Shown here piece after piece: positions 4,020 through 37,093 of a DNA stretch of 64,000 nucleotides. Within the stretch, counting starts at the first letter, position 1. Each line of letters starts with the position of its first letter. The notes beneath the pieces were generated by a model. The model ran no database searches, had not been told where the DNA came from, and was given only the letters and a program-made list of their open reading frames with translations. Source of the stretch: Octopus vulgaris (taxonomy: Eukaryota); NCBI GenBank assembly GCA_951406725.2, contig OX597815.1:111786001-111850000 (forward strand). Direction: 5' to 3'. The translations under genes and the position numbers were made by a program.

Positions 4020-4585
4020 TATAATAAGAGTAAACAATAGCTTTAATGGTTTTTAAAAAAACAAAATGTATTTACTGGTAGATTTCGGCATGTAAAATAT
4101 TACCATTAACGGAAGGAATTTCTATAAAAGTTCAATATATATTTTGTATATATACGACAACCTTACGACAACCCATAGTTTCTATCTCTAAGGAACTATT
4201 TTTGTAATACGCATGGTAAAATTTGGAGGGAAAATTTACGGATTCAATCGTCTATATAGGTTTGGCCTATTCTTGCTTTCTTCCCCTATTTCGATGTCGC
4301 CTGATCGAGAAGTGGAGGTACATAGCATTTGATAAATCTATTTTAGTGGATGTTTACGCTGACGAAGGACATGGAATTGATAGTTTATTATATTCCTTAT
4401 CCAGAAACGCGTTCATAAATAACTGTTAGACTTTGTTTTCGTTATTTCTTCCTTCTGTTTTACATATGTGAATTACAGGGATATGTCGTATGTGGAATCT
4501 TATTTGTAGAAAATAGAAATAAACAGTCTTTGACTGTTTCTAATTTTTTCGGTATGTGGCTAAGCAACCTGTTGCCAGTCTTTTA
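4020..4585 (+). mobile_element. PLE pseudo-LTR-like repeat carrying a hammerhead motif
   Basis: 4020-4150 matches 63570-63700 directly and 4520-4585 matches 63700-63765 inverted. Contains an HHR motif at 4351-4421 and is bounded by TA-rich microsatellite. Confidence 0.55.
4351..4421 (+). ncRNA. Minimal type-I hammerhead ribozyme motif (slightly degenerate)
   Basis: tgtttacg-CTGACGA-a-gga.ggaat[loop]attcc.tcc-a-GAAA-CGCG-TT-cataaata. Stem I has one mismatch; the stem III loop CGCG is palindromic. Confidence 0.55.
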
Positions 4586-4624
4586 TATATATATATATAT
4601 ACATAATACATAATATATACATTC

Positions 4625-4683
<59 letters not shown>

Positions 4684-4833
4684 CAGTAAAAGCAATTAAG
4701 ATTCAAGTGAGTTCTGTTGAATTCACATGAATGCGGTACTTAACTTAAATGCACTAGAAATCTATATAGTATTAACCATAAGGTTATTCGGGGTGATTAT
4801 AAACAAGAAAAAAGCAACAAAAATGGATCAATA

Positions 4834-4923
4834 TTTCGGTACAATTGTTTCGTACGAAGACCACCTTTATTAAGGCTGCAAATATTGCAGCAAATACAAG
4901 TGACCCGTACTCATCAGCCGAAA
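4834..4923 (-). ncRNA. Type-I hammerhead ribozyme motif
   Basis: Reverse complement reads tttcgg-CTGATGA-GTACG[long extended stem II]CGTAC-GAAA-CAATTG-TA-ccgaaa: perfect core, 6-bp stem I, GUA cleavage triplet, palindromic CAATTG. Confidence 0.85.
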
Positions 4924-5724
4924 AAACATCTGAGTTGTCAAAACATCTAAGTGGGTGAGACTACACTCCTGAAACATTATGGATAGTTCTATAAAAATCA
5001 GATTTAGATAATAAACGGACTTCCAAAGTTCTTTAATCTTGCACAGTCATATAACAGGTTTTAAAAAAGTATTTTAAAAAACCTCTTAGTTTCACAGAAA
5101 ATGAAAATGTAAATCCATCCATAATGAAGTAGGTTTGAATTCTGGAGTTATGAGGAGAGATTTCATACTCACAGACGATGTATTTATCCATAATTAGTCC
5201 ATAATAAAGTGGGTTTCCTGATGTAAAACGATATACTAGTTGCATTTCTGATCATTTCTCAAAACTGCTATGTTAGAATTAGTTGAAGGAAAGTTAGTGG
5301 AGCGTAGAGACGATCACTCACATAGGGTATAATGGGGTAACTGAGAGTAGAAGAGGTTGTAAATATCCAACTACGCAGAATAGTTTATTTCAGTGGAGAC
5401 AAACTGACTGGGTCAGAATTTGCAAGAATCTAAGTGTTTTAAAGAGCAATGCTATTATTGACCAGTATACCGTTGTTGATTGCTATATAAAGAGGACACG
5501 GGAAGGTAAAGGCGGGACAAAGGTTGTCACTATAGGAAAAAACATTAACAAATTTCAGTGCAACACTAGAAAGGAGGTCATTTAATTTATTTCTTTATTT
5601 ATTAATGTTACTAATTTATTAATGGAAGTCCGTTTATTATGTAAATCTGATTTTTATAGAACTATCCCTGATGTTTCAGGAGTGTAGCCTCACCCCTTTA
5701 GATGTTTTGAGAACTCAGATGTTT

Positions 5725-5814
5725 TTTCGGCTGATGAGTACGGGTCACTTGTATTTGCTGCAATATTTGCAGCCTTAATAAAGGTGGTCTTCGTACGAAA
5801 CAATTGTATCGAAA
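5725..5814 (+). ncRNA. Type-I hammerhead ribozyme motif (inverted partner of 4834-4923)
   Basis: tttcgg-CTGATGA-GTACGggtcac...gtggtcttCGTAC-GAAA-CAATTG-TA-tcgaaa. Confidence 0.85.
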
Positions 5815-5842
5815 TATTCATCCATTTTTGTTGCTTTTTTCT

Positions 5843-5901
<59 letters not shown>

Positions 5902-9298: not shown

Positions 9299-11813
9299 AA
9301 TATTAGGGAATAAATCCAAATTTACAGGGAAAAAATCAGATTTAGGATTAAATCCAATTTTATAGTAAAATATTATATAATATTATTAGAGACAGAACCA
9401 CTATTTTGCAAAACAAACAAGGAAAGACTTAATCAATACATAAAATTTTAATAAAAAGTCAAAAAAACCGCCACTACAATTGTTTCTTGTCCTGATCGAC
9501 AATCTTCAGGTGGACTTCCAATCTAAAATATCAATATTTTAAAATATAAAAATAATAATTTTAAAATAATTAAAGTATTAATGAAAAAATATAAATATAT
9601 AATCTATATATAACCTATATATAATCCATATATAATCAATATATAAACAATATATAAACTAAAATAAACCTATCAACAATTAAATATAATACAAAACAAA
9701 AAATAAACTATATATACACCCATACACATATAACTAATTATATATAACCATATCTAAATACATACACTAAATCACACACCTATATATATATCCCTATACA
9801 TACACATAAAAACTTTCTAGGCAACGATAAATAAATAAAATAGCCAAATACTTCAACACAATACTTATTCATACTCCCTCACACACACATACAACCCACA
9901 TTCCCGCTCTAGAAACGAACATCATTTAAAATTATGAATGGAGAAATGGAATAAATGGAATTAAGAATTATATTCACTTAGTAAAACGAACATTACTTAA
10001 AAATTATGAATGAAATAATGTAATAAAATAACAAACATCGTAAATAGACATAAATTACTACGAATTCTTTAATAAAACTACCATGATAAACTAATACTCA
10101 TAAAAACATATAATGATAAAATCTCCCTTTACTAAACTCTATAACATACCTATATAGCAATCCCCCTAACCTAAACATTCACACACAAATACACACACGT
10201 AAACCACACACCCACGACATATACAAATACCCACCTCACTCACACATACCTATACATACATATAAACCTCAATATATACTCCAAAAACCCACTCAACCCC
10301 ACACAGATAAATAAACACATACATCCCCAAACCTTTATAGCAAACCCATAAACACATTCACACACAAATATACATACGTAAAACACACACCATATACATA
10401 TACATACACACTAAACTCGATATATACAACAATATTAACACACCCACACTCATACAGATAAATAAATTATACAACTAAAATACGCACACACTCACACACA
10501 ATCCCATATACATAAACACTCCAAAGAAAAACAACATTATTACACATAATACGATATATAAAATACATCGTAAGTAACCAGAATATCAAAAATAACAATA
10601 TGACATAAGGAGAAATAATATACATACTTTCAAGTCAGTTTCAAATTATGAAGTGAAATTAAATTCTAAGCCGTTAAAAACGTCAAATCAAAATTACGTT
10701 ACCATAGGAACCTAACATATGTATAAAAAGAATACGCGCTATGGAAGCAAACGTCATTTAAAATTATGAATGGAGAAATAGAATAAATGGAATTAAAAAT
10801 TATATTCACGCGGTAAACTAACATTATTTAAAAAAATTCTGAATGGATTCTTTAATAAAACTATCATGATAAATTAAAACTCATAAAAACATAAATGATA
10901 AAACCTCCCTTTACTAAACCCTATAACATACCTATATAGCAATCCCTTTAACCTATACATTCACACACAAATACACACACGTAAACCACACACCCATAAC
11001 AAATACAAATACCCACCTCATTCACACATACCTATAAGTACATATAAGCCTCAACATATACACCAAACAAAATTACGTTACCAAGGAACCTAACATATGT
11101 ATAAAAAGTATTCTCGCTCTGGAAACAAACATCTTTTAAAATTATGAATGGAGAAATGGAATAAATGGAATTAAAAATTATATTCACGTGGTAAAACGAA
11201 CATTACTTAAAAATTATGAATGAAATAATGTAATAAAATAACAAACATCGTAAATAGACAAATTACTACGAATTCTTTAATAAAACTACCATGATAAACT
11301 AAAACTCATAAAAACATATAATGATAAAATCTCCCTTTGCTAAACTCTATAACAAACCTATATAGCAATCCCCCTAACCTAAACATTCACACACAAATAC
11401 ACACACGTAAACCACAGACCCACGACTTATACAAATACCCACCTCACTCACACATACCTATACTAACGTATAAACCTCAATATACACCAAAAACCCACTC
11501 CCACCCCACACAGATAAATTAACACATACATCCCCAAACCTATATAACAAACCCATATACACATTCACACACAAATATACATACGTAAAACACACACACA
11601 CAACATATACTCCCTCACATATACGCATATACATACTCACTAAACTCGATATATACAACAATATTTACACACCCACACTCATACAGATAAATAAATTATA
11701 CAACTAAAATACGCACATACTCACACACATTCTCACATACATAAACACTCCAAAGAAAAACAACATTATTACACATAATACGATATATAAAAAACTTCAT
11801 AATTAACCAGAAT
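9295..11813 (-). mobile_element. Hammerhead-bearing PLE-like element with internal tandem duplications, nested in a SINE
   Basis: HHR at 9471-9513. AC-rich unit repeated at ~9901-10583, ~10690-11068 (partial) and ~11069-11813. Flanked on both sides by the SINE's (TA)n. Confidence 0.7.
9471..9513 (-). ncRNA. Minimal type-I hammerhead ribozyme motif (canonical core)
   Basis: Reverse complement reads ccac-CTGAAGA-TTGTC-gatcag-GACAA-GAAA-CAATTG-TA-gtgg; all three stems pair. Confidence 0.9.
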
Positions 11814-35058: not shown

Positions 35059-36314
35059 TGACAAAAATTATGGTACTGGAACAAAATATAATTTCACCCA
35101 ACATATTTGTTGGGTATCAAAATACGAATTTTTAAGTAACATCATATTTAGGCAATTATTTCGAGGTCCGTGTGGGAATTTGAAATACAGTGGTCGATAT
35201 GATGCGTGATTGTTGTATCTGCAGTTGTTACATTTGCACTAGGTCTGTGAAATGAATGGCCTCCTTACATCAGAAGTATACTAAATAATAGATTCTGAAG
35301 TGAATGAAGTTAAAACGAAATTAGAGATCAGTTCATAGACGCTGTCATTTTCCTATAATCTGAATAAATATTCATGATTATGAATTAACTCTATCTATAC
35401 AAAGGTGAAACTAGTCCCCCTACTCATATACTGGATTACGAACTACATTGGGTGAGATGGACATTCTGTCACTAATCAAGCGTTGATTTAAATTATACGA
35501 ATCTTATTTATTAATAGTTCCTACATATTTTTTATAATCATGTATGTGTGAAGAAAAACTTTGTCAGTAGAAACCAGCTACCAAATATAAAAATGGTGAT
35601 AAAAAGTCCCTAATGGTTAAATAAATATTTAAACATTTCAAATAACAGAATAAATTACAGTGTTTAATGAGGTGAGCCACACAGTATAAATTTGTTGTAA
35701 CATCAGATAGAATAGAGACGTGCACATAATTTGATTTAACTAATGCTGACTATCAAATAATGAACCTTTCGATTAGTATGCATGTGTAAATCGGGTGTTT
35801 TACTTCGTATTTCATAATGTTTATAGTAAACGTGCCACATCTAAGAACACGCTGCTTGAACATTTGCATTTCGTGTTTTCAATAAAAGAGATCACAGCAG
35901 AATAAAGGACTGAGTATACTATATAATTAAAGTCTACCTTCATTGCAAAAAATTGTGACCAACCCCAGCACCAAAAAATATTAAATATCACAAGATATAG
36001 TATTAAAATTAGCTTTCATAATAAAGATGAAAACATTAAGAAATCTAGACATAAAGTTCAAATCAAAAGAGAATTTGCGATTACTTTCTCACATACGTAT
36101 AAAGTAAAAATTTACACTCATATACACATATGTCTCTGAGTGTAAATGTACGTACGTATGTATGAGTGTACATAAATACAGTGTACATTTAAACACAAAA
36201 GAGGTATCCAACATAGGGCTACTTGCACGCTAGAGAGGACAGTTAAATTCCAAATCAATATGAAGGATAAAATTTCAAATGGAATGAAAAATAAAATCGT
36301 TTACTATCTAACTC

Positions 36315-36382
36315 CTGGACTAATGGTTTCAGACGTTTTTTAGCAAATAAAATAATTTGCTAGGCGACGCCTTCTTCAGCAA
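36315..36382 (-). ncRNA. Hammerhead ribozyme motif
   Basis: Reverse complement reads ttg-CTGAAGA-AGGCGT[tagcaaat hairpin]ACGTCT-GAAA-CCATTAG-TC-cag. Confidence 0.7.
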
Positions 36383-36493
36383 GTACACCTTAGATTAAAT
36401 ATATATATATACGAGGCAATCCAGTATATGCCCGCTGTTTATACATTCTAATTTTTCAAATCTAACACGCAAGCGCAACTCCTTGCCAGCAGT

Positions 36494-36609
36494 GGGGTCG
36501 ATAAATTAAGTACCAGTTACGCACTGGGGTCGATATAATCGAATTAATCCGTTTGTCTGTCCTTGTTTGTCCTCTCTGTGTTTAGCTCCTTGTGGGTAGT
36601 AAAGAAATA
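36494..36609 (+). mobile_element. 5'-truncated SINE tail inserted in the left palindrome arm
   Basis: ggggtcgataaattaagtaccagttacgcactggggtcgatataatc...aaagaaata is absent from the right arm and flanked by duplicated AGT (36491-36493, 36610-36612). Confidence 0.8.
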
Positions 36610-36868
36610 AGTAAATAAATATGCCAGCTTTTTCATTTCGAAAATTATCCAAGAAAAAAATTATCAATAATTATTAATATTAATTATTAATAATATTAAT
36701 TATTGATAAATATTTTCCTGGATAATTTTCGAAATGAAAAAGCCAGCATATTTATTTACTGCCGACAGGGATCTTCGCTTGCGCGGTAAATTGAAAAATT
36801 AGAATGTATAAGCACGGGGAATATACATGGATTGCCTCGTGTATATATATATTTAATCTAAGGTGTAG

Positions 36869-36936
36869 CTGCTGAAGAAGGCGTCGCCTAGCAAATTATT
36901 TTATTTGCTAAAAAATGTCTGAAACCATTGGTCCAG
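36869..36936 (+). ncRNA. Hammerhead ribozyme motif
   Basis: ctg-CTGAAGA-AGGCGT-cgcc-TAGCAAAT-tatttt-ATTTGCTA-aaaa-ATGTCT-GAAA-CCA.T.TGG-TC-cag, with a GUC triplet. Confidence 0.75.
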
Positions 36937-37093
36937 GAGTTAGAAGGTAATTGTTTTTATTGTTCATTCCATTCGAAATTTTATCCCTAATATTGGTTTG
37001 GAATTTAACTATCCTCTCTAGCATGCAAGGTTTTTACACGCTAGGCCTCTGGAAATGGAAATTTCTCATATTTCTGATTACCCTTTGATATTA

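Follow-up and report, generated by a model that had tools for sequence, protein, structure and literature searches.

Head-to-head copies of a Hydra-clade PLE in the Octopus vulgaris genome combine one short and one long end

Results

An asymmetric inverted unit between TA repeats

The window analysed here, a 64-kb stretch of Octopus vulgaris DNA, contains two inverted arms of 228 nt each, at positions 4798-5025 and 5623-5850. The arms are 96% complementary (10 mismatches, 0 gaps), are separated by 597 nt and form the longest inverted repeat in the window. On both sides, the unit is bordered by (TA)n, at 4584-4683 and 5845-5877. An earlier note on this DNA had described near-identical arms of about 220 bp and (TA)n at both ends, and these observations hold. 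It had also described a spacer of about 600 bp with no recognisable ORF: we found no ORF in any of its six frames, but the sequence itself is recognisable, as the 3' UTR of a PLE. In another copy, L030, an antisense open stretch gave no Pfam match. The parts of the locus are as follows, S and L being the short and the long end point of the element.

4584-4683, no strand: left flank, (TA)n-rich target microsatellite
4684-4803, minus strand: 120-nt PLE 'tail' up to the long end point L, equal to the leader before the ORF in full-length sister copies (L114, L119)
4804-5025, minus strand: left arm, the pseudo-LTR at the 3' end of the element, with the S-equivalent point at 4804
4834-4923, minus strand: left type I hammerhead motif, predicted cut after 4840 (GUA)
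5026-5613, minus strand: 'spacer', the 5'-truncated PLE 3' UTR, contiguous with the GIY-YIG frame in L092, L099, L100 and L102
5614-5622, no strand: inversion junction with a 9-nt filler, which together with the next 2 nt repeats 5597-5607 (sequence compared with natural copies)
5623-5844, plus strand: right arm, the shorter 5'-truncated 3' end, up to the short end point S
5725-5814, plus strand: right type I hammerhead motif, predicted cut after 5808 (GUA)
5845-5901, no strand: right flank, (TA)n then (TG)n

The unit is asymmetric, as 120 nt of the left copy (4684-4803) have no counterpart in the right copy. It is composed of a 930-nt and a 222-nt 3' fragment of the PLE, placed head to head. 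The junction filler is a locally templated insertion, copied from the sequence 17 nt upstream; fillers of this sort are of the polymerase-theta type. In each arm, 6-7 of 219 columns deviate from the family majority, and this drift is ordinary decay. The locus is an old, incomplete and decaying transposon fragment.

Each arm carries a hammerhead motif

One type I hammerhead motif is present per arm, on opposite strands and facing outward, with the core CUGAUGA/GAAA, the triplet GUA and a 59-nt stem II region made of 7 bp plus a long extension. Stem III is a very short palindrome. Rfam returned no hammerhead match, neither at the gathering score nor at E<=10. Across nine chosen sister-subfamily sequences, 96.1% of cells were paired, relatedness inflating the control for this figure; in the same sequences four hammerhead pairs, including two of stem I, show changes of both partners, and the stem II extension covaries less (inner hairpin 89% paired). 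Motif match and covariation support the hammerhead identity, as support and not as proof. Exact matches to a hammerhead 28-mer number only 39 in the genome. The intact, outward-pointing hammerheads with a long stem II that had been described earlier are thus confirmed in motif, strand, orientation and stem II region, while 'intact' applies to the motif only, given the short palindromic stem III.

Minimal hammerheads with a short palindromic helix III cleave weakly as monomers (PMC4209133, in the passages used here), and a transcript of either strand of the unit carries one sense hammerhead only. By analogy, the hammerhead type of the window would usually require a second sense copy. The hammerheads are passengers of the pseudo-LTR, structurally constrained in active lineages and likely without function at the window locus.

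The window holds a second inverted pair (36222-37029; 202 nt, 92%), whose hammerhead motif belongs to another family and has the core CUGAAGA, the triplet GUC and a long stem II. Another repeat sequence lies between its arms, and its right copy continues for about 70 nt to (TA)n. A script scan also listed other single hammerhead-like motifs in the window, at 9517 (-), 34206 (-) and 55751 (+).

The parent element belongs to the Hydra clade by motif match

A first look at the genome gave 1768 candidates for the arm, 764 for the spacer and 1585 for the tail; each part is multicopy, and these figures are not copy numbers. Upstream of the spacer, the longer copies L092, L099, L100 and L102 contain a GIY-YIG frame and an RT frame. 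Since the spacer continues into these frames, it is the 3' UTR of the element, read on the minus strand. Likewise, the 120-nt extension lies between the pseudo-LTR and the start codon in the full-length copies L114 and L119, where it forms the leader, and therefore corresponds to the PLE 'tail'. Arm, spacer and tail were all identified with PLE copies, in agreement with the PLE origin suggested by the earlier note.

A single ORF that combines RT with a GIY-YIG endonuclease at the C terminus is present in L100, L099 and L102 and in the sister copies L112 and L114; the truncated window copy is without it. Open frames in sister copies span 981-1091 aa. Neither Pfam (hmmscan) nor a PDB sequence search detected the RT. 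A single protein hit bore a name, and it came from an octopus. The PLE frames have the GLYRDD motif, with RWK in L114, RWR in L112, and DKT instead of DKG in both and in L097 of the window's subfamily. The linker has the form CxC-x5-C-x5-C, the GIY-YIG core has one Cys, CCHH is absent, and CQLC..E..LN..CxH, read by eye, places CxxC and CxH around a conserved E and N. The Hydra clade is defined by RW(K/R), DKT, the CxC-x5-C linker, the lack of CCHH, and CxxC/CxH around E and N (PMC8557442, in the passages used here). By this motif match, and by comparison by eye with the Hydra-1_Obim rows, the parent element is assigned to the Hydra clade.

The genomic layout gives the same picture. L114 consists of an inverted tail followed by pLTR-tail-ORF-pLTR, L119 and L113 are built likewise, and nearly all typed ends adjoin (TA)n. 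Motif and covariation suggest a type I hammerhead within the pseudo-LTR. The unit of L114, about 4.65 kb, exceeds the 'generally <3 kb' of the clade, a feature described as general and not diagnostic. No fully intact copy was found of the window's own subfamily, the intact frames coming from sister subfamilies at about 70-85% identity; in one young sister subfamily, copies are 98-100% identical and have open frames near 980 aa.

The ORFs of L100, L112 and L114 contain Asn-rich inserts between RT and endonuclease (16-19% N overall), as rotifer Penelopes do, and the length of the inserts varies between subfamilies. The leader of L114 and L119 ends in a stretch rich in pyrimidines, with an AG that lies a few bases upstream of the ATG and resembles a 3' splice site. 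Retention of a 5' intron is known for PLEs.

Junctions differ between loci

The earlier note had proposed a multicopy non-autonomous unit with fixed junctions, in which the ribozyme would limit the dsRNA hairpin formed by its own transcript. Among 112 merged loci, top-scoring hits and not random copies, 41 head-to-head pairs of the window's subfamily were typed. L060, L111, L112, L114, L119 and L161, which are sister-family, tandem or duplicate loci, had been excluded in advance, and in five pairs the interruption of one arm prevented typing. The 5' end points differ among the 41 pairs, except in L154/L177 (possibly one duplicated event), and among the 112 merged loci the window junction occurs at its own locus only. 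These results contradict a unit with fixed junctions. A junction unique to this locus is also the outcome that the earlier note had named as refuting its proposal, although the inverted structure is what insertion routinely produces and no artefact. A non-autonomous element of the MITE or retrozyme kind was likewise rejected: junctions differ, the sequence represents a coding element's 3' end, and the locus has no tandem monomers.

The self-limiting hairpin is largely refuted by the unique junction, and we give it very little credence. One half of the idea was borne out in folding predictions: read through, the full 1166-nt RNA would form a very stable hairpin (-496 and -482 kcal/mol) that excludes the hammerhead fold, with pairing probabilities of 0.000 for stems I and II. 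The covariation of hammerhead pairs across sister subfamilies also speaks for it. Self-limitation itself fared poorly in the same predictions, as 181 of 217 long-range pairs on the plus strand, or 179 of 214 on the minus strand, would persist after a cut, a duplex of about 180 bp, and only about 36 of some 215 pairs would be removed. Taken without the antisense arm, stem I reaches a predicted probability of 0-0.08 with 60 nt of upstream sequence and forms in a 101-nt piece. Against the idea also stand the ordinary 3' UTR nature of the spacer, the decay of the arms, and the single sense hammerhead per transcript, of a type described as a poor monomer cleaver (PMC4209133, same passages). An A-to-I signature was sought in genomic copies of both subfamilies: in neither of them did sense A>G exceed T>C, and the one nominal deviation (p=0.018) went the opposite way.

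Head-to-head pairs combine one short and one long end

Copies stop at two fixed points, S and L, which lie 120 nt apart. Both are beside TA-like motifs of the element, and the last bases vary somewhat. All 41 typed pairs of the window's subfamily combine one S and one L end (the L arm of L092 is interrupted within the tail). Since 31 of these had been found without the tail as query, the best-case chance under independence is 0.5^31 = 5e-10. A further 19 loci of this subfamily gave nine pairs, again all S+L, two of them with 1.4-2.8 kb between the arms. In the younger sister subfamily, the 14 resolved pairs from 26 merged loci were S+L, as were the 15 pairs among 20 regions fetched after the rule had been noted, the other five being single-armed. 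In total, 79 of 79 resolvable pairs were S+L, 50 from the window's subfamily and 29 from the younger sister. Alignment-based typing of pair subsets gave the same result (27/27 and 32/32, or 59/59), and unpaired arms ended at S in 26 cases and at L in 25. L112, which is S+S, was set aside: its flanking DNA is inverted and duplicated too, at 99.8%, indicating a later duplication or an assembly feature.

The two mates of a pair share minor substitutions about four to five times more often than shuffled mates do (per column, 0.025 versus 0.0051 and 0.0096 versus 0.0026; 0/5000). Between S and L arms we found no allele differences over 347-1571 sites (best p 0.04-0.07), and there is therefore no sign of an origin from two distinct pseudo-LTRs. 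Most of 28 junctions show overlaps of 1-6 nt; fillers also occur, and L163, L168, L204 and L249 have near-palindromic junctions. At both ends, the bases adjoining the TA repeat vary between copies.

Among the S ends of the young sister subfamily, 16 of 32 have a G beside the TA repeat that is absent from both the template copy and the repeat. It recurs across several sub-lineages and is possibly a non-templated first base.

Two priming sites on one RNA as a model of insertion

The reading that we favour, and hold to be quite probable, is that the unit consists of two 5'-truncated 3' ends of a Hydra-clade PLE, head to head in (TA)n, one ending at L and one at S, which likely arose in a single insertion with both target strands priming RT at two RNA sites. 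In our model, the GIY-YIG endonuclease would nick both strands of (TA)n, and each 3'-OH would prime internally on the element RNA, one at S and the other at L, the two sites probably being served by two subunits of a dimer. Both cDNAs would stop at random points and then undergo end-joining. We lean, with little more than even confidence, towards the general form of this model, in which PLE insertion is obligately asymmetric twin priming: one RT dimer would use two fixed RNA sites, and every two-armed insertion would be S+L.

How else might such pairs arise? The arm that reaches further 5' is the S arm in 24 of the 41 pairs and the L arm in 11, with 6 about equal; therefore, simple copy-back of one cDNA, by which a long S arm could not arise together with a short arm that bears the tail, cannot make most pairs. 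A more elaborate fold-back route would start from a self-primed intermediate, possibly on an antisense template, with the tail on both arms, one of which the endonuclease would trim to S during integration. Self-priming of this kind has been proposed (PMC3846280) and 'EN-mediated resolution' is mentioned in PMC8557442, both in the passages used here. Such an intermediate is possibly compatible with the genomic end products, and it accounts for the variants common to mates, for the junction overlaps of 1-6 nt and for the four near-palindromic junctions. The common variants could also be explained if the arms underwent gene conversion or if few source loci were active. Trimming, however, would have to affect exactly one arm in 79 of 79 pairs, be it the longer or the shorter, and among insertions with a single arm the S and L ends are about equally frequent. 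Moreover, variable bases beside the TA repeat at both ends are expected of priming, not of cutting, and the tail was bounded by RT start sites in vitro (PMC11167929, in the passages used here). We regard the fold-back route as unlikely.

It is far less plausible still that two independent insertions entered one (TA)n, or that the assembly is at fault. (TA)n is a hot target, L118 holds a convergent S/S couple, and the window junction is known from this assembly alone. Assembled contigs of four sequencing runs contain the family and other inversion joints; among the listed pieces none spans the window stretch, which says nothing on the locus. Independent insertions would yield S+S and L+L pairs, though, and no (TA)n lies between the arms; the 10 differences between the arms are unlike an assembler's mirror copy, and the same layout recurs at 79 loci.

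Discussion

In L1 twin priming, the second target strand primes internally, producing a 5' inversion whose junction shows short homology. There, the inverted piece contains no second copy of the 3' end, and the position of the second site is variable. In the PLE of the window, by contrast, the two arms are copies of one and the same region, made from two fixed sites.

The closest known systems are in the Hydra clade, in which an octopus family is already listed, the Octopus bimaculoides family Hydra-1_Obim (Craig et al. 2021, PMC8557442; this comparison draws on part of that source). Our element and the clade have in common RW(K/R), DKT, GLYRDD, the CxC-x5-C linker, the lack of CCHH and CxxC/CxH, as well as a hammerhead in the pseudo-LTR, the (TA)n target, a 5'-truncated copy in inverted orientation and a tail that is confined to one end. 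Compared by eye, Hydra-1_Obim is a different family, with another hammerhead and protein. The octopus unit described here also differs from the clade in its length (about 4.6 kb versus <3 kb), its Asn-rich inserts, its long 3' UTR, its tail of about 120 nt instead of 30-40, and its 59-nt stem II region. Like the metazoan PLE hammerheads of Cervera and de la Pena (2014), ours is of type I with an enlarged helix II and a palindromic helix III; theirs has a helix II of 7-8 bp, whereas ours has 7 bp plus a long extension. In the passages of the same study used here (PMC4209133), dual opposite-strand hammerheads 100-700 bp apart in Schistosoma are tied to truncated PLEs.

For the green anole element Poseidon_Ac (PAc), Frangieh et al. 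(2024; PMC11167929, consulted in part) found both target strands nicked and extended and predicted a dimer; two internal RT start sites bound the tail, and hammerhead cleavage was dispensable in vitro. PAc belongs to another clade and its start sites are adjacent and lack homology to the cut DNA; the passages of the report used here contain no pairing rule between the two ends. In the Penelopes of Adineta vaga, self-priming on an antisense template was proposed from few copies and in qualitative terms (Arkhipova et al. 2013; PMC3846280, likewise in part). The origin of inverted pseudo-LTRs and of the one-sided tail in PLEs is stated as an open question in the passages used here of PMC8557442 and PMC11167929. 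The layout, the one-sided tail and octopus Hydra elements are already in print, and the pairing rule itself was not found stated: the freely accessible literature that was searched contained neither a one-S-one-L nor a twin-priming rule for PLEs beyond qualitative statements.

The 79 of 79 pairs turn a qualitative remark into a quantitative constraint on PLE insertion. If true, obligate asymmetric twin priming would explain both inverted pseudo-LTRs and the one-sided 'tail' by one mechanism, which could be read from genomic copies in their thousands. The family offers a test bed, and its young sister subfamily a natural substrate. Insertions of this kind also give rise to many long inverted repeats, which would yield dsRNA if read through and may bear on RNA editing in the octopus genome.

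Other arrangements of family copies

At 4487-6904 of L098, an open frame of 806 aa, from a Hydra-like PLE that is more distant, starts right at the L end of a family copy, an arrangement that looks like a nested insertion or a chimeric read-through. L158-L161 (G000:C27:8.17-8.19 Mb) contain one S+L unit with its flanks in four tandem repeats, a later segmental amplification. In L113 and L211 (G000:C2:37616500-37631500), two near-full-length young copies lie head to head over about 10.7 kb, their outer ends being S and L. One of the two has an internal pseudo-LTR; consequently, its template was longer than one unit (a multimer or a circle).
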